In this document: piece by piece, positions 7,781 to 18,558 of the stretch
How positions within the stretch are numbered: the stretch's first letter is position 1
How the letters are laid out: each line of letters starts with the position of its first letter
Assembly (NCBI GenBank): GCA_965222605.1
Contig: OZ244960.1
Coordinates: forward strand, 4,384,001-4,448,000
Source: Candidatus Latescibacterota bacterium
GTDB taxonomy: Bacteria > Latescibacterota > UBA2968
DNA: 64,000 bases
Direction of reading: 5' to 3'
The notes under the pieces: model-generated
The model's input: the letters and a program-made list of their open reading frames with translations, nothing else
The model's database searches: none
What the model was told of the DNA's origin: nothing
Translations under genes and position numbers: made by a program

Positions 7781-8662
7781 TCAATTCTCCATCAATAAGG
7801 TTCTCATTTTACGCATGCGCGAGGGATGTTTGAGTGCCGCCAGGGCTTTGTCGCGTATTTGGCGCACGCGCTCTTTGGTCAAGTTGAGGATATTGCCAAT
7901 TTGCTCCAGCGTCATTGTTTCACCGCTGTTAATGCCAAAATAGAGACGCAACACGCGGGCGTCGCGCGGAGCCAGTGTGTTGAGCGCAGTGCGTATTTCC
8001 TCTGCCATAGATCTTTCGAGCATGGTCTCTTCGGGGCTTTCTTGATCTTTGTCTGACAACATTTCCAGCAAGCTGGTGTCAGGACCGTCTTCAAGGGACA
8101 TGTCGTATGAAACATGCCATCGCGAAGCGCTGAGGAGGTCTTGCACTTGCTTGGGGTGCAATTCGGCCTGTGCAGCGATTTCTTCGATGCGCGGCTCGCG
8201 CCCCAGCGATTGTTTGAGTTCTGCGGATATGCGTTCCAATTTGCTCAGGTGTTTGATTTTGTTGACGGGCAGTCGCACCATGCGGGCTTTTTCTGCCAAT
8301 GCCGATAAGATGCCCTGCCGAATCCACCAGACTCCATACGTGGTGAATTTGACACCAACGGTTTCGTCATAGCGGGTGGCCGCGCGAACAAGCCCCATGT
8401 TCCCTTCGGCAATGAGGTCTTCAAGGAGCAAGCCGCGTCCCTGATATTCTTTCGCTATGGTAATGACAAACCGCAAATTGGATTCGATCATTTTATTCAG
8501 ACTTTTGCGGTCTCCTTTGCGAATGCGCTTGGCCAGATCAATTTCTTCTTGTGGCGTGAGCAATTCGCTGTAGGCTATGTCTTTGAAATAGAGTTCCAGT
8601 GCAGAACTACTGCCTCCATTTGTGCTGGTTGAGGTTTTGTAGTTCATGAGTGCGGCAGACAT
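7781..8662 (-). CDS. RNA polymerase sigma factor, RpoD/SigA family (short form, no region 1.1)
   Basis: NLRFVITIAK, DLIAEGNMGL, KFTTYGVWWIRQ, TLEQIG..TKERVRQI. Confidence 0.9.
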   Translation of the reverse strand: MSAALMNYKTSTSTNGGSSSALELYFKDIAYSELLTPQEEIDLAKRIRKGDRKSLNKMIESNLRFVITIAKEYQGRGLLLEDLIAEGNMGLVRAATRYDETVGVKFTTYGVWWIRQGILSALAEKARMVRLPVNKIKHLSKLERISAELKQSLGREPRIEEIAAQAELHPKQVQDLLSASRWHVSYDMSLEDGPDTSLLEMLSDKDQESPEETMLERSMAEEIRTALNTLAPRDARVLRLYFGINSGETMTLEQIGNILNLTKERVRQIRDKALAALKHPSRMRKMRTLLMEN

Positions 8663-12194: not shown

Positions 12195-12277
12195 GAGTGC
12201 AAACTCTTGATCTGATCTAAAGGATGTAGAAGATGATACAAACTCGGCCGATAGGGCGATGCCCTATCGGCTTTTTT

Positions 12278-13348
12278 TTACTGTTCTGCTAATACCAGAG
12301 ACATAATATCGCCTTCGAGTGTTTGTTGAACGGTTGCAATGGCCTGTTGCGCTGCTGTTATTTGCGCGCTATCGGTGGCGAGAGCATCGCGGAATGGGAA
12401 GGAGATTTTGCCAATTTCTGTAATGGCCGCCTGAATTTCAGCCTGGAAACGCTGGTCGAGAGCGGAGTCTTTGCTTTTGACAAATTCATCGAGGCCCACT
12501 GCTTCAACATTGTACCCACCCAGGTAAACATTTTGAATGCTGCGGATATTGTCTTGAAAGTCGAGGAGGGAGTTAAAGCTGAATTGCGATTCCACCAGGC
12601 GCGTGTCTTTCTCGGTAAAAGGATCGGCAATTTTGCCGTTTCCGACTTTGTCGGCAATGCCAATCATGCCGTTGACCATTTCCTGGACAGCGGCTTTTTG
12701 CGTGGTGTAGGTGTTGCTCCCGGCGCCGGCATTGATCACCTGGGCGCGGAAGTTTTCGCCGGATGCGATCCAACTCGTGTGCAGGGATGTTGCCGCGTCT
12801 TTGAGCAATTCTGACGCTGCGATCAAATAATCGTATTGGCGCGGGGTGAAGTCTTTGATGGTTTTGCTGCCGCCTTCGTCAAAGAGTAAGAATTCAACGG
12901 TGTGAAATCCCTTGAGTTCGTTGGCGAGGTTGTTTACGGATGTTTTGGTCAGGGGATCGCCGCTACCCAGAACGCCTTCGAGATCGGTGCGGTTGACTGG
13001 CCAGGAATCCAGCGCGGGGTCAAAGCCGCTAAAATCGACGGGACCGAACAAAAAACCCTCGCTTTTTTCCCAGGGAGAACGCGAGGCCACCCATTTTGCA
13101 CGGGCTGTTGCCAACGTGGCTGCCGAGGGATTGGTTTTGAGATTTTGCACAGCAGTGAGGAGTTCTGTGGCGACGGTGGCGAGGTCTTTGTAGGTCGGGA
13201 TAACTGTTTTGTCGGCAAAGTCGGTCAAAATGGGTGAAAAATCATATCCGGGTTCGGGTTCTGGCGCGACGGGGCTTGCGCCCTTGCTGTTGCAGGCCGC
13301 GAGGGAAAAGGCGAGGATGATACCGAGTAAGGGTTTGATGCGTTTCAT
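12278..13348 (-). CDS. Imelysin/IrpA-like iron-regulated lipoprotein
   Basis: Lipobox LAAC, SEGFLFGP, DSWP, GFHTVEFLLF (GxHxxE), VESQFS. Confidence 0.88.
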   Translation of the reverse strand: MKRIKPLLGIILAFSLAACNSKGASPVAPEPEPGYDFSPILTDFADKTVIPTYKDLATVATELLTAVQNLKTNPSAATLATARAKWVASRSPWEKSEGFLFGPVDFSGFDPALDSWPVNRTDLEGVLGSGDPLTKTSVNNLANELKGFHTVEFLLFDEGGSKTIKDFTPRQYDYLIAASELLKDAATSLHTSWIASGENFRAQVINAGAGSNTYTTQKAAVQEMVNGMIGIADKVGNGKIADPFTEKDTRLVESQFSFNSLLDFQDNIRSIQNVYLGGYNVEAVGLDEFVKSKDSALDQRFQAEIQAAITEIGKISFPFRDALATDSAQITAAQQAIATVQQTLEGDIMSLVLAEQ

Positions 13349-13369: not shown

Positions 13370-14611
13370 TTAGAATTGAAAACCGAGTGCAAAACTGGCG
13401 GTGTTTTCGCCGTTGAAGTTTGACGCGCCCAGGCGACGCATGGCATAGTCGCCTTTCAGGACGACAGTATTGCTCATGGTGTAGTTGAGACCAAAGGTGT
13501 AAACGCGGCGTTTGAAGCGCGGATTGTCAAAAAAGTTGAGCGGCATTTTGGCCATTGTGTCGTAGCTGTCAAAGCGAAAGAATAGGTGGCATTGATCCTC
13601 CTTGCGCGAAGTGAAAAAGGGCATGATGTCGTAACCGGCTTCGGCATAAAATGCATACGCTGCACTGGCGACGGGTGTTCTCAAGACATCGAGGTTATTG
13701 GACAACGTGCGGTTGCGCTCGCTGACAATGTCCGCATTTTGCAGGTGTCCGTAGAGATACAGGCCTTGTGCACGGAAGCGATTGTATCGAAGCACAGTGT
13801 GGACGTCAAAAATGGATATGTAGGCGTCTGTATCTTTCATGTCGGGTTTGGGGCGGTTGTCGGCACTGTTGCCGCGATAGCCCGATACGCCAAAGGTGAG
13901 ACCATCAACGAGGCGGTAGTCCAATCGACCCGCAAGGGCCATGTTGGATGCGCGAACTTCTTCAAAGCGCGTTTGATGCCCGCCTACAATCCAGTTTTGC
14001 GAATTGAAGCCTGTGGCGTCTAAGCCGTTGACGAGTTGGAACTGATAGGTCAGGCGATTGATATGGCCGCTGATTTCAATACCTGTCTCGTGCCATATTG
14101 CCGGAATAATCGTGGTTTCCGATTCGGGGCGGCGGGTGCCAAAAAAGTCCGTGGGATGGTATTGCTCTGTGGTGAGGCCCACCGCGACGTAGAAGTGGCC
14201 CAGGCGGATGTTGAAGGCGTCGCTAAATTCGCGTTTGATGTAGAGTTCTTCGAGGATGACTTCCCCGCCTTTTTCCACTTCGGTTTCGTATTCGCCAAAT
14301 TCTTCGTATTCGATTTCGAGGGCACCGCCCGTACCGCCGTGTTCGATTTCCACTTCGGTTTCCAGTTCGACACCGCGCAGCAGGCGGATTTCCATTTCGA
14401 GTGCCAAACGCGCAATATCTATGGTGGCGCGGCTATCCGGTGGCGAACCCGTTGGGCTGCTTTTCTGATCGGGACCGTAATCGAAGTGGGAGTAGATGAG
14501 TTCACCGTATCCCGTGATTTTAAGTTTGGGCGCTGATTTATGGCCTTCAGCCATGATGTTCATGGGCAACGCGAGCGTTAGACAGATGCTAAACAAAAAA
14601 AGTCGTTTCAT
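13370..14611 (-). CDS. Outer-membrane porin-like protein of the imelysin iron-uptake cluster
   Basis: Signal peptide, EVEIEHGG, acidic EYEEFGEYE.E.EKGGEV loop, C-terminal F. Confidence 0.8.
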   Translation of the reverse strand: MKRLFLFSICLTLALPMNIMAEGHKSAPKLKITGYGELIYSHFDYGPDQKSSPTGSPPDSRATIDIARLALEMEIRLLRGVELETEVEIEHGGTGGALEIEYEEFGEYETEVEKGGEVILEELYIKREFSDAFNIRLGHFYVAVGLTTEQYHPTDFFGTRRPESETTIIPAIWHETGIEISGHINRLTYQFQLVNGLDATGFNSQNWIVGGHQTRFEEVRASNMALAGRLDYRLVDGLTFGVSGYRGNSADNRPKPDMKDTDAYISIFDVHTVLRYNRFRAQGLYLYGHLQNADIVSERNRTLSNNLDVLRTPVASAAYAFYAEAGYDIMPFFTSRKEDQCHLFFRFDSYDTMAKMPLNFFDNPRFKRRVYTFGLNYTMSNTVVLKGDYAMRRLGASNFNGENTASFALGFQF

Positions 14612-14631: not shown

Positions 14632-14660
14632 TTGACGCTGAAAAGGCGTGCTGTTATATT
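14632..14660 (+). promoter_or_regulatory. sigma70 promoter antisense to the porin leader
   Basis: TTGACG-17bp-TATATT with TGn extension. Confidence 0.6.
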
Positions 14661-14666
14661 GTGTCC

Positions 14667-14754
14667 TGCAAGCGCAGAGGGTTTGATCTCTCTGGCGCGT
14701 GCGCGCGGGTGATCGGTGATGGCCGGGCAAGTCAGAACCGATCGCCTTTTTTTT
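14667..14754 (+). ncRNA. Candidate antisense sRNA (~88 nt)
   Basis: Own promoter, 5' hairpin GCGCAGAGG..TCTCTGGCGC, terminator GGTGATCGGT..ACCGATCGCC + T8. Confidence 0.5.
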
Positions 14755-15514: not shown

Positions 15515-16086
15515 GGTGATTCTTGTTGTGAGTAAATGACATCGAGGACTGTGAGAACCCTCTTGACGCCCGCATTTAAGGCGCGTACCGATAGGGTTGC
15601 GCCACTGATGCCGATAATGTCGCGGTTGAGACGAATGTGGTGGTTGATGTTTTTATTTCTGTATTGGGTCAAGAACCGCTGGCGTTTGACCTGACCGCCT
15701 CGCGATTCGCGATAGACCATGATCCATACACCGCCAACGCGGTGATCGGGTTTGACTTTGACGATGAAGGTGATGGGTTTGTAGAGGCCAATTTGATTCG
15801 TGATGATCGCGTATCCCTGATGTTGTTCATTTTTTTTTGCCTGAAAAATAGTGAAGTCGGGTTCTTCAAGGCGCCACCCCAATCGCCTTTCAATGCGTCG
15901 CCGTTCTTGTGGGGTTGGGGTCCAGACTTCGCTCCAGAGCGTGTCTGCATCCGGGAAGGCTTTTTTTAGAGCCTGTTCTTCTGTGAGGTAAACAGTGATA
16001 GCCTCTGGGCCGTCGGGACCCTGCGCGAATCCGAGTCCCGATAGCAGGCAGACCATGATACAGAACACGTACTTATTTTTTATCAC
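15511..16086 (-). CDS. FMN-binding domain protein (flavinylation substrate)
   Basis: YRESRGGQV, ISGATLS flavinylation motif. Confidence 0.8.
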   Translation of the reverse strand: MIKNKYVFCIMVCLLSGLGFAQGPDGPEAITVYLTEEQALKKAFPDADTLWSEVWTPTPQERRRIERRLGWRLEEPDFTIFQAKKNEQHQGYAIITNQIGLYKPITFIVKVKPDHRVGGVWIMVYRESRGGQVKRQRFLTQYRNKNINHHIRLNRDIIGISGATLSVRALNAGVKRVLTVLDVIYSQQESP

Positions 16087-16104
16087 TGTTTTCAGTCCTG
16101 CATC

Positions 16105-17223
16105 TTAAAAATACGACGCAATGGAAAAGAAGAGACGGCCTGTGCCATCGCCTTTGTCGCCATTTGCCGGAGTTTTATAGGTGTTGTTGTAATCCAGCTT
16201 AAATACCGTGTCTTCAACGGGGCGGAAGTTCAAACCAAAGGTGATTCCGTATTCCGAATCGCCGGTTATTGTGGTATCAAAATCGACCCAGTCCCAGCGC
16301 GCAATAGCTGTGAACACGGATTCTGACAAGAAATAGTCGTGCCCAAAGTGAAAGTTGGTTTGTGCATAAGCACCGCGCTGGTCGCCGTTAAATCCATCGG
16401 CGGTGGCTTGCCCGTATTCGCCCTGAAGTTCAATGGGCCCCTGTGTAAATTGTGCGTCGGCACCGAGGATGGAGAGGCGGTTATTGCCCGCATCGTCGTA
16501 TTTGCCCGTGTGGAAAGATGCGCCGAGGTCAATGCCAAGGCGCGGGCTGAAGCCGAATCGTCCGACGAGTGCTTTGTCGTGGTTGTTGTCCGATTTTTGG
16601 CTGCCCCGTCCGCTTCGAATGCGGAGTTTGCCGCCGGAGTTGACTTTTTCGTTGAATCCGTTGACGAGATAGATTTCATAAGTTGCTACAGAGATTTCAG
16701 AGGGGTAAAAGGTGCCAAAGAAGCCCATTCCCGCTTCTGCGAGGGTAGATGGCATGATTTGACGGTTCACGGTGGGGCGTTCGGTCAGGTCGTTGAGTGG
16801 CGTATCGTGCAAGAGGTTGAAACGCCCGAGCGGGGAGAGGATGACACCGCCCCGATAGCTGAAGGCTTCTGTAAAGGTGAAGTCCAGGACGGCGTATTCG
16901 AGTTTGATTTCGCCATCGGTGTTGCTGCTGCCTTTGACGAGGCCGCCGTGTTCAAATTCGATTTCGCATGAAACGTGAAGTCGGTCGGTGATTTCCGAGT
17001 AGATAAATGGGATAAAGCGGTGCTGGTCAAAGGTGCTGTCTTTTCCTTCTGTCCACTCAAATTCGTGGTCGAGATATCCGCCGATAGCTACATTTTTGCC
17101 CATGCGTTTGATATAGGGTTTGTCGTATATGCCGCCGGGCAATTCGGGCCGTTTGTCTTCCTCGGCTATGATGGGAAGTGCGAGTGTGAGAGACAAGAAC
17201 GAAGCGAGCAGTTTGAAGCACAT
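16105..17223 (-). CDS. Outer-membrane porin-like protein
   Basis: Signal peptide, GGIYDKP, EIEFEHGG, C-terminal YF. GGAGG RBS. Confidence 0.8.
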   Translation of the reverse strand: MCFKLLASFLSLTLALPIIAEEDKRPELPGGIYDKPYIKRMGKNVAIGGYLDHEFEWTEGKDSTFDQHRFIPFIYSEITDRLHVSCEIEFEHGGLVKGSSNTDGEIKLEYAVLDFTFTEAFSYRGGVILSPLGRFNLLHDTPLNDLTERPTVNRQIMPSTLAEAGMGFFGTFYPSEISVATYEIYLVNGFNEKVNSGGKLRIRSGRGSQKSDNNHDKALVGRFGFSPRLGIDLGASFHTGKYDDAGNNRLSILGADAQFTQGPIELQGEYGQATADGFNGDQRGAYAQTNFHFGHDYFLSESVFTAIARWDWVDFDTTITGDSEYGITFGLNFRPVEDTVFKLDYNNTYKTPANGDKGDGTGRLFFSIASYF

Positions 17224-17262
17224 GTTTCCTCCAGTGAGAAACACAACGCCGTTCAAAGTGGG

Positions 17263-17291
17263 TTGACATGAACCGCAAAACACCCTACTTT
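17263..17291 (+). promoter_or_regulatory. sigma70 promoter antisense to the operon leader
   Basis: TTGACA-17bp-TACTTT. Confidence 0.6.
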
Positions 17292-17297
17292 GAATAC

Positions 17298-17374
17298 GAG
17301 TTGTGCCTTTGGTGTGACTCAGACCATCTTCCGTTGGGCTGGCAGGCTCGTGAGACGGCAGGTGGTCTTTTTTT
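17298..17374 (+). ncRNA. Candidate antisense sRNA (~77 nt)
   Basis: Starts 7 nt after the -10. G-U-rich hairpin GAGTTGTGCC-TTT-GGTGTGACTC, then stem AGACCATCTTCCGT..ACGGCAGGTGGTCT + T7. Confidence 0.5.
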
Positions 17375-17393
17375 GTTTGGCGGTCTATAGATA

Positions 17394-17411
17394 TGTTTTA
17401 GTAATAAAACA
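17394..17411. promoter_or_regulatory. Palindromic operator candidate upstream of the iron-uptake operon
   Basis: Perfect 7-4-7 palindrome TGTTTTA-GTAA-TAAAACA. Confidence 0.4.
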
Positions 17412-17580
17412 ATCGCCCAACAAGCAAAACAAATGTTGGGTATATGTCAACAAGTTTTTTAATTTTTTTCTTACATTATGATAAGTCAGGTTAATTCAGC
17501 TTTGGCGATCAACTGAAAAGGGTTGAATTTTTGGGACAAGTACCTATTTTGTTTGCCGATCTTGTGCGAGGAGGCGTGAA

Positions 17581-18558
17581 ATGTCTGAGGTATTGAAGGT
17601 CGCTGTTATTGGCGCGAGTGGCATTGGGCAGCACCACGCGCGATGGCACCATTTGTCGGGGTCTCGGGTGGTGGCATTTGCGGGCACTTCGGAAGAGTCG
17701 TGTGCAAAAACCCGGTCGCAATTGCAGGCGTATTTTGGATTTGATGGGCGTGCATATACGGATGTGGCACACATGCTGGCGGCTGAACAACCCGATGTGG
17801 TCGATGTATCAAGTCCTTTTCACCTGCACAGAGACCATGCAATTATGGCTCTGGAAAGCGGGTGCCAGGTGGTGTGTGAAAAGCCTTTGTGTTGGGATAT
17901 GGATAGGGATTTGGACGATATTTTGGCCGATGGACAGGCTGTGGTGCGTGCGGCGGAACAGGCGGGCAAATCGCTGGTGATGTCTGCACAGTATCCCGCG
18001 GGGATTTCAATTTATCGCGATTTTTACGCGCGTGTGCGGGGGACGTGGGATAAAGTTGAGTCGCTCGAGATGGAGATGGAGGTGAAGGGTCGCAGGGGGC
18101 CGAAGGCACGAGAAGATATTTGGATTGATCTGGCTTCCCATCCGTTGAGTTTGGTCCTGGGTTTTTTGCCAGAGGGAGAAATCGATTGGGCAACGGCCTC
18201 GTGTATAATAGACGAGCGGGAAAATCGCGCGAGTTTTGATGTGATCACGCCCGAAGGGCGGTGCGATGTGAGGTTTGTTTTGCGCGATGTCGATGAGGGG
18301 ATTCCCGTGCGGCAATTTGGCGTGAATGGCTTTTTGGTGAATTGGGAGGGGTTTGCCGATGATGAGGGTATTTATCGCGCGCGATTAGTTCATGGGGATG
18401 AGGCTGTGATTTGCGACGATTTTATGCATATTTTAATTGATGAATTTGGCAGGCATGTACGCGGCGAAGATGGGCGGGTTGTTGTTTCTGGCGAGGACGC
18501 TTTGAAGAATTTGCAGTATCAAATTGCCCTGTTAAAGCTGGCGGATTGGCCTGTATGA
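17581..18558 (+). CDS. Gfo/Idh/MocA oxidoreductase
   Basis: IGASGIG, CEKP, DLASH. Confidence 0.85.
   Translation: MSEVLKVAVIGASGIGQHHARWHHLSGSRVVAFAGTSEESCAKTRSQLQAYFGFDGRAYTDVAHMLAAEQPDVVDVSSPFHLHRDHAIMALESGCQVVCEKPLCWDMDRDLDDILADGQAVVRAAEQAGKSLVMSAQYPAGISIYRDFYARVRGTWDKVESLEMEMEVKGRRGPKAREDIWIDLASHPLSLVLGFLPEGEIDWATASCIIDERENRASFDVITPEGRCDVRFVLRDVDEGIPVRQFGVNGFLVNWEGFADDEGIYRARLVHGDEAVICDDFMHILIDEFGRHVRGEDGRVVVSGEDALKNLQYQIALLKLADWPV

Follow-up and report, generated by a model that had tools for sequence, protein, structure and literature searches.

The window analysed here, a stretch of 64,000 nucleotides (nt), belongs to contig OZ244960.1 of a Candidatus Latescibacterota bacterium. The source genome (G000) is complete, with a size of 6.3 Mb and a completeness estimate of 98.7%, and the near relatives are on record as metagenome-assembled genomes of Candidatus Latescibacterota that originate from marine-invertebrate metagenomes. 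We focused on a 357-nt intergenic gap that separates a minus-strand gene, porin 1 (16105-17223), from a divergent plus-strand gene beginning at 17581. On the plus strand of this gap, positions 17263-17374 carry what we consider fairly probable to be a small gene for a cis-encoded antisense RNA of ~77 nt, named asRNA1, which would lie opposite the leader of the porin mRNA.

The candidate promoter of asRNA1, of the sigma-70 type, consists of a -35 hexamer TTGACA (17263-17268), a 17-nt spacer (17269-17285) and a weak -10 hexamer TACTTT (17286-17291), which is replaced by TAATTT or TACCTT in some species. The predicted transcript (17298-17374) would start at G17298, a position deduced from the spacing, as it is the seventh base past the -10, and would extend to the end of the T-run. 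It comprises a 5' hairpin of 10 pairs, four of them G-U (17298-17320), which is indicated by folding and by conserved pairing, followed by a 47-nt terminator hairpin with a near-invariant apical GGGCTGGCAGGCT (17321-17367), which is indicated by folding and by covariation, and finally by a T7 tract (17368-17374), whose identity within the genus is 1.0. A stem-loop followed by a U tract, as in an intrinsic terminator, is found on the plus strand, and no U tract follows the stem on the mRNA strand. All the elements listed in the original prediction, namely TTGACA-17-TACTTT, a start at +7, a hairpin and a terminator with T7, are present at 17263-17374.

Folding energies differ markedly between the two strands. 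The 5' hairpin reaches -6.5 kcal/mol on the plus strand versus -1.6 kcal/mol on the minus strand, and the terminator hairpin -23.5 versus -12.7 kcal/mol. For the whole 83-nt stretch, a value of -33.5 kcal/mol (z -3.4, 0/200 shuffles as good) was obtained on the plus strand, whereas the minus strand gave -17.3 kcal/mol (z -0.9, 38/200 shuffles as good). Moreover, the arrangement TTGACA-N17-TANNNT occurs four times in the window, compared to 0.43 expected.

Strand-specific conservation of the RNA element

The intergenic regions of G000 and of 11 other species of its genus were aligned with MAFFT (12 sequences). In this alignment, 98.8% of the pair cells hold on the plus strand versus 71% on the mRNA strand, and for the 5' hairpin these values are 100% and 57%, respectively. 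Pairwise identity within the genus is 1.0 for the -35 hexamer, which is invariant in 12/12 sequences, 0.93 for the -10 hexamer and 0.72 for the spacer, which keeps a constant length while its sequence drifts; the reference identity is 0.81, as measured at 140 four-fold degenerate sites of the porin gene. Such a pattern looks like the footprint expected of a promoter.

A covariance model of asRNA1 (R1) was built from the genus alignment. It recovers a single copy in the source genome (102.8 bits) and one copy in each of 16/53 genomes of the order, which belong to three genera of one Latescibacterota family. By family, matches were found in 15/30 genomes of f1 and in 0/22 of f2; by genus, they were found in 11/20 other species of g1, in 1/1 of g4 and in 3/3 of g9. 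The four matches outside the source genus score 38.6-55.1 bits and are in antisense orientation, each 60-150 nt before an orthologous porin start. Overall, surroundings were read for 15 of the 16 matches, and all 15 are antisense and directly upstream of a porin start; for G006, G009, G003 and others, the flanks were seen through the alignment only.

When the 16 sequences of the three genera were aligned by fitting them to R1, 431/437 pair cells were found to hold on the plus strand, compared to 315/437 on the mRNA strand. The G-U-rich 5' hairpin was claimed to pair well on the plus strand only, and this is borne out by the alignment (151/151 cells on the plus strand versus 88/151 on the minus strand) as well as by the folding energies given above. 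Each of the 16 sequences contains 5-10 G-U pairs. Among the 28 pairs of asRNA1, 13 change on both sides, and in the main terminator stem 10/13 pairs covary. None of 500 shuffles reached any of the five covariation measures, and in slid control alignments only 37-47% of the cells pair. A T-run follows the stem in 16/16 sequences, being interrupted in one distant locus (L034), and the terminator apex varies little, three species having small variants and one distant locus an A/T exchange.

The promoter is found at the same position in the other genera, as TTGACT-17-TATTAT in three g9 loci and as TTGACA-17-TATTTT in one g4 locus. The spacer sequences of these distant promoters differ, while their distance to the first hairpin is unchanged. 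The -10 hexamer is stronger there than in the source genus, which argues against a chance motif. The anatomy of asRNA1, its conservation, its strand specificity and its single-copy linkage to the porin leader are shown in silico. The claim of an independent antisense RNA gene in the porin leader gains support from the promoter being placed alike, from the plus-strand pairing, from the covarying terminator stem and from the single copy, all of which are read from sequence.

We also looked for the antisense layout before homologs of porin 1, as had been suggested, in 33 of 35 loci, since L053 and L056 come without upstream sequence. An antisense terminator with a promoter was found in 11/33 loci, every one of them in Latescibacterota; it was not found in L029 and L033, nor in any of the 20 loci of Krumholzibacteriia, Fibrobacteraceae, Gemmatimonadota, Planctomycetota and others. 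It should be noted that the porin 1 family itself has homologs of 37-60% identity (L035-L056) in Krumholzibacteriia, Gemmatimonadota and the anammox Planctomycetota Scalindua and Brocadia.

Other identities of the element were considered. An Rfam search of the whole window at the gathering threshold, on both strands, returned a single tRNA and nothing at asRNA1; between 17100 and 17650, at E up to 10, it gave chance-level mir-303 (E 3.4) and PK-repZ (E 0.23), both located elsewhere. The exclusion of a known riboswitch, for which an Rfam scan had been advised, is thereby obtained, no known family being matched on either strand. A repeat or mobile element was ruled out, as both the leader and the covariance model are single-copy in the genome. 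A 63-aa open reading frame (ORF) with a TTG start (17290-17481) was discarded because indels in the T-run and in the loops shift its frame between species, and these indels rule out any conserved ORF in asRNA1.

Related sequence was found in 18 sequencing runs, 10 of them recorded as RNA, and the contigs of X1, X3, X4 and X7 (4/18) were compared. None of these contigs lies on 17278-17358, which gives no verdict on transcription. One X4 contig (RNA library, from a relative) spans 17115-17270, its strand and ends not being given by the contigs. Three X7 contigs from a coral metatranscriptome start at 17367-17370 and then continue with unlike sequence; they are copies of the porin promoter block, described below, in other contexts of a relative.

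The porin operon, its candidate promoter and its leader

Porin 1 (372 aa; minus strand) possesses a signal peptide, a C-terminal ..SYF and a predicted beta-barrel. Its Shine-Dalgarno (SD) sequence GGAGG and its ATG (17223-17221) occupy 17221-17235 of the minus strand, and this start is kept in 9/9 orthologs. Profile searches gave no Pfam or NCBIfam match. An AlphaFold2 model computed with 24 homologs is a beta-barrel of 16 long strands (pLDDT 79.7), and a Foldseek comparison with the PDB placed the general porins OmpC, V. cholerae OmpT/OmpU, OmpK36 and PorB at the top (E 2e-12 to 5e-10, TM 0.52-0.66). A signal peptide, a barrel of ~16 strands and an aromatic C-terminal residue, as in general porins, are all found. 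By its modelled fold, the protein deserves the name porin.

Porin 2 (413 aa; 13370-14611, minus strand) is a distant paralog of porin 1, with 27% identity across 167 residues (E 4e-8); a search of the source genome for porin paralogs with porin 1 as the query returned nothing beyond porin 1 itself. The minus-strand operon runs in the order porin 1, FMN-binding protein (FMN_bind), PepSY_TM, porin 2, imelysin and di-haem oxidoreductase (DHOR), and a ferritin gene lies further downstream on the same strand. According to PMC8238504, clusters of the PepSY-like type that have flavinylated partners are tied to iron reduction and assimilation/uptake. Judging from the neighbours imelysin, DHOR, ferritin, PepSY_TM and FMN_bind, the porin operon is an iron-uptake operon. 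Near the ferritin gene, at 7781-8662, lies a gene for a 293-aa group-2-like sigma-70 factor, which is RpoD/RpoS-like and scores under the equivalog cut-offs.

The divergent gene at 17581 encodes a GFO/IDH/MocA oxidoreductase and begins ~200 nt beyond the asRNA1 terminator, being the next plus-strand gene in G000. The plus-strand transcript could on this account be the attenuated leader of a GFO/IDH/MocA-glycosyltransferase operon. In G019 and G015, however, the genes beyond the terminator lie on the porin strand while the RNA element is intact; an attenuator of the plus-strand operon was rejected from this gene order, and we regard it as extremely improbable.

A candidate promoter of the porin operon lies upstream of the complement of asRNA1. 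Its -35 TTGACA (17445-17450, minus strand) is invariant in 12/12 sequences and present in distant loci, and its candidate -10, at a spacing of 18 nt, reads TGCTTG in G000 and TATTTG in most relatives. It is accompanied by an 18-bp palindrome, TGTTTTA-N4-TAAAACA (17394-17411, identity 0.975), a candidate operator of the DtxR family. Only two exact copies of this palindrome exist in the 6.3-Mb genome. The second one (G000:C1:6126812-6126829; L089 1513-1530) is situated in the promoter of the gene at G000:C1:6126873-6127397, which adjoins feoB and encodes a DtxR-family repressor with the domains Fe_dep_repress and Fe_dep_repr_C. Both copies have the identical spacing TTGACA-18-hexamer-9-palindrome; when one mismatch is allowed, the count equals that of the control. 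The palindrome may be considered as a candidate iron-repressor operator of a small regulon.

The segment 17394-17450 is the only conserved promoter-like block for porin 1. From its position, operon transcription would start at ~17414 and would be repressed by the DtxR-family regulator when iron is sufficient; the leader would be ~190 nt long and would hold the complete complement of asRNA1. The larger block 17369-17463 recurs in relatives, where it stands in front of other minus-strand genes. For example, in G015 the promoter/operator block (L007 3040-3133) precedes a membrane protein gene, without an antisense RNA gene there. An inverted repeat, CCCAACA-N11-TGTTGGG (17416-17440), overlaps the presumed operon promoter in its spacer/-10 region; the repeat is kept across the genus but not in distant loci.

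The porin mRNA itself contains a leader hairpin (17236-17312, minus strand), in which an outer stem AGGCACAAC/GTTGTGTTT encloses an inner stem TTCAAAGT..ACTTTGAA. This pairing, which had been proposed from the sequence of G000, is found both in the minimum free energy (MFE) structure (-26.5 kcal/mol, z -3.6) and in the consensus fold of 12 species, where the outer stem is paired in 12/12. Hairpins with other arm sequences occupy the same position in three g9 loci and one g4 locus (z -2.1 to -5.8); among these distant hairpins, one compensatory change distinguishes L034 from L032, and L031 has G-U pairs that can form on the mRNA strand alone. Read on the opposite strand, the loop of the leader hairpin corresponds to the asRNA1 promoter, including the 17-nt spacer, and its base corresponds to the asRNA1 5' end. 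As the hairpin base is complementary to the first asRNA bases in all three genera, RNA-RNA pairing would open the leader hairpin.

This hairpin raises the question of whether the mRNA leader alone is functional, as a protein- or ligand-binding or stabilising hairpin, the plus-strand features being by-products. In favour of this view, the mRNA has a conserved hairpin whose arms differ between genera and include G-U pairs that hold on the mRNA strand alone, and in 177/207 cells the main terminator stem can pair on this strand too. However, this strand pairs in just 88/151 cells of the 5' hairpin and in 50/79 cells of the apical helix of the terminator, the T-run exists on the plus strand only, and neither strand matches Rfam. 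Moreover, TGACA is invariant although it stands in the hairpin loop, the remainder of which drifts, so that the mRNA structure does not explain its invariance, and the -10 hexamer is nearer to consensus in the distant genera. We consider a function of the leader alone unlikely.

A second candidate antisense gene and the proposed mode of action

A second candidate gene of this type, asRNA2 (14632-14754, plus strand), lies in the 141-nt gap that forms the leader upstream of porin 2. It comprises a promoter, TTGACG-17-TATATT (14632-14660), with 10/12 consensus matches, a structured RNA of ~88 nt as counted from its inferred start, a terminator hairpin (14707-14746) and a T8 tract (14747-14754) that overlaps the stop codon of the PepSY_TM gene. 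Its fold reaches -46.2 kcal/mol (z -4.4) on the plus strand versus -29.3 kcal/mol on the minus strand. Promoter and terminator are conserved in 5/5 aligned genomes, and asRNA2 is missing or replaced in 4/8 loci of relatives. Its sequence is unrelated to that of asRNA1, and a bracketing hairpin is not evident at the porin 2 leader. The same layout with unrelated sequence does exist before the second porin, as the original prediction had stated.

A third plus-strand terminator, with a perfect 12-bp stem and T8 (12246-12279), lies between the genes for imelysin and for di-haem oxidoreductase, and its hairpin is present in 4/6 aligned genomes. It was not counted as a third RNA gene, its putative extended -10 being unconserved. 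The three orphan plus-strand terminators of the window all lie within the porin operon.

The occurrence of terminators in three intergenic gaps of the operon (12246, 14707 and 17321), one of which, that at 12246, lacks a conserved promoter, would also suit another function. The plus-strand terminator might insulate the iron-regulated promoter against spurious or read-through antisense transcription, and the short RNA would then be non-regulatory. A conserved and correctly spaced promoter ~100 nt upstream in three genera would not be expected of an insulator, nor would a conserved 5' hairpin and a near-invariant apex, and this explanation seems quite unlikely to us.

How asRNA1 would act on the leader was examined further. 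The original prediction held that asRNA1 captures AGGCACAAC and thereby frees TGTTTCT to pair with GGAAACA at the ribosome-binding site (RBS) and start codon, which would turn off porin 1 translation. The outer stem that must open is indeed paired in 12/12 species, and in each of the three genera the base of the leader hairpin shows complementarity to the asRNA 5' end. We mimicked the asRNA-bound state by holding the antisense target unpaired, a crude test with an arbitrary 5' end and 25-27 nt of coding sequence. With the target blocked, the mean unpaired probability of the segment from SD to AUG fell from 0.53 to 0.36 in G000, from 0.53 to 0.31 in G019 and from 0.47 to 0.25 in G004, where another gene follows the leader. 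In G000, the TGTTTCT/GGAAACA helix appears in the MFE structure once the target is blocked. By contrast, the change was at most 0.09 in the other 9/12 genus leaders and at most 0.07 in the 4/4 leaders of other genera, a fall of more than 0.15 being seen in just 3/16 leaders.

The partner sequence is not conserved either. The pairing of TGTTTCT with GGAAACA is limited to G000 and its nearest relative G019, the RBS region reading GGAGAAAAGCATG in most species. In addition, G004 (L013 1595-2996) carries an intact asRNA1 cassette (103 bits) directly before an ortholog of porin 2 (93% identity) that has another RBS; this site lacks porin 1, FMN_bind, PepSY_TM and asRNA2, and a search of G004 for porin 1 gave no match. 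The switch was rejected as a conserved mechanism, since its effect is confined to 3/16 leaders and its GGAAACA partner is unconserved, and as the explanation of asRNA1 we judge it improbable. What stands of the claim is that the helix can form in G000; the anti-RBS helix is at best a local embellishment.

That the cassette was kept in G004 after the loss of porin 1 from the site could point to targets elsewhere. In that case asRNA1 would be mainly trans-acting, like MicF beside ompC, with its chief targets among, for example, envelope or iron genes, and its near-invariant apical motif and weak, openable 5' hairpin could serve as seeds. Against this, the search for an Hfq gene was negative, a scan for sequences complementary to the apical motif gave 63 loose matches versus 29 in the control, with no clear target, and asRNA1 was never found away from a porin leader. 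A mainly trans-acting role is in our view very unlikely.

In the source genome (98.7% complete), the Hfq model TIGR02383 gave 0 matches, the control matching 5/14 reference genomes, and an RNase III gene is present (250 bits). The promoters of asRNA1 and of the operon, as presumed, face each other at a distance of ~150 bp. Given these facing promoters, a full complementarity of ~77 nt, the presence of RNase III and the lack of a detectable Hfq, we propose that the two RNAs form a duplex without the help of Hfq and that RNase III then cleaves it. In this scheme, the operon would be transcribed toward asRNA1 from a promoter that carries the DtxR-type operator, and asRNA1 would pair perfectly with the leader at ~+40 to +117, starting at the base of the conserved leader hairpin. 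The long duplex would be cut by RNase III and/or the convergent promoters would interfere with each other. Leaky operon transcripts would be removed in this way, which would create a threshold for induction under iron limitation. The control would be negative and Hfq-independent, and asRNA2, unrelated in sequence, would do the equivalent job before porin 2.

Several points weigh against asRNA1 being such an antisense gene. The -10 hexamer is weak in the source genus (3/6 matches), and a stricter sigma-70 scan found no promoter in 16000-18000; the asRNA1 promoter was missed there because TACTTT matches TATAAT at just three of six positions. The metatranscriptome contigs are unstranded and come without RNA ends, so that the transcription, strand and ends of asRNA1 are predicted. 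The start of the porin mRNA is likewise inferred, and a porin promoter downstream of 17298 would make asRNA1 divergent rather than antisense. The mRNA strand has a conserved hairpin of its own, so that the asRNA does not account for all of the sequence conservation. The pair counts of the 16-sequence alignment are biased in favour of R1, to which the alignment was fitted, and a single genus contributes 12 of the 16 sequences, which share 83-96% identity and are not independent. Moreover, four porin orthologs of the family are without an R1 match (G021, G022, G024 and G050, which is broken), indicating that asRNA1 is dispensable. Finally, the sign and the mechanism of the regulation are pure inference.

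A more elaborate arrangement, which we put forward only tentatively and hold to be rather unlikely, is an interlocked 'promoter-in-loop' switch composed of leader and antisense gene; together with the DtxR-type operator, this switch would amount to a two-input toggle. The asRNA promoter would then be the loop of the mRNA hairpin, and the first asRNA bases would be a copy of the 3' arm of this hairpin. The asRNA would invade the leader hairpin by strand displacement, and operon transcription would run through the asRNA promoter and occlude it. If so, the toggle for iron uptake could be bistable, and the second, unrelated antisense RNA would provide cistron-specific control of porin 2 within the operon.

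Relation to known antisense systems

An antisense RNA in the leader of a porin operon can be compared to several known systems. In Bacteroides, as described in part of PMC7366714, DonS-family RNAs are cis-antisense RNAs of 78-128 nt that lie opposite the 5' ends of susC genes in polysaccharide utilization loci (PULs) and have a negative effect. The likeness to this description lies in a short RNA that faces an outer-membrane transporter gene at its 5' end and in a comparable length (~77 nt for asRNA1 and ~88 nt for asRNA2, both counted from inferred starts). The host groups also share the lack of a detectable Hfq. In contrast, the target of asRNA1 has the 16-strand fold of a general porin and is not a SusC/TonB-dependent transporter, its locus serves iron uptake instead of glycan use, and its promoter is of the TTGACA/TAnnnT type. 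We suggest that asRNA1 works like DonS and yet is no member of that family, given the differences in target, locus type and sequence (DonS was compared by description, with no Rfam match). It may be added that Latescibacterota and Bacteroides both belong to the FCB group.

IsrR of Synechocystis is an iron-stress-repressed cis-antisense RNA directed against isiA, a gene induced by iron starvation, and it confers threshold behaviour. IsrR is located inside the isiA coding region, whereas asRNA1 lies in a 5' leader, in another phylum and with a candidate operator of the DtxR type as partner control. MicF and MicC of enterobacteria are trans-acting RNAs that pair imperfectly at the RBS and need Hfq. 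They resemble asRNA1 as small RNAs with an intrinsic terminator beside a porin gene and in the control of porin output, which for asRNA1 is proposed. Unlike them, asRNA1 is fully complementary to the adjacent leader and would keep off the RBS, with its 5' end at a distance of 75 nt upstream of the AUG; the search for Hfq in its host was negative, and there is no Rfam match to MicF or MicC. The prgQ/prgX pair of pCF10 and the antisense RNAs that set plasmid copy number have face-to-face promoters, a short overlap and stem-loops, and may combine transcriptional interference with RNA pairing; asRNA1 differs in being placed on a chromosomal nutrient-uptake operon. No sign of bistability or attenuation was seen for it, the terminator scan and the leader folds giving no terminator in the part of the leader that follows the target.

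By analogy with these systems, asRNA1 would represent antisense control of the DonS or IsrR kind and no new class of mechanism. The suggestion of a possibly undescribed regulatory system holds for the sequence family, which has no Rfam match, but not for its kind, as outer-membrane transporter genes with a cis-antisense RNA facing their 5' end are already known.

A leader hairpin that is wrapped around an antisense promoter offers a compact test case for a laboratory host. Latescibacterota is an uncultured phylum, and our literature search found no paper on its small RNAs. If real, asRNA1 would be a first well-supported regulatory RNA of this phylum, and the antisense control of outer-membrane channels known from Bacteroides would extend to an iron-uptake operon, beside a repressor of the DtxR type.

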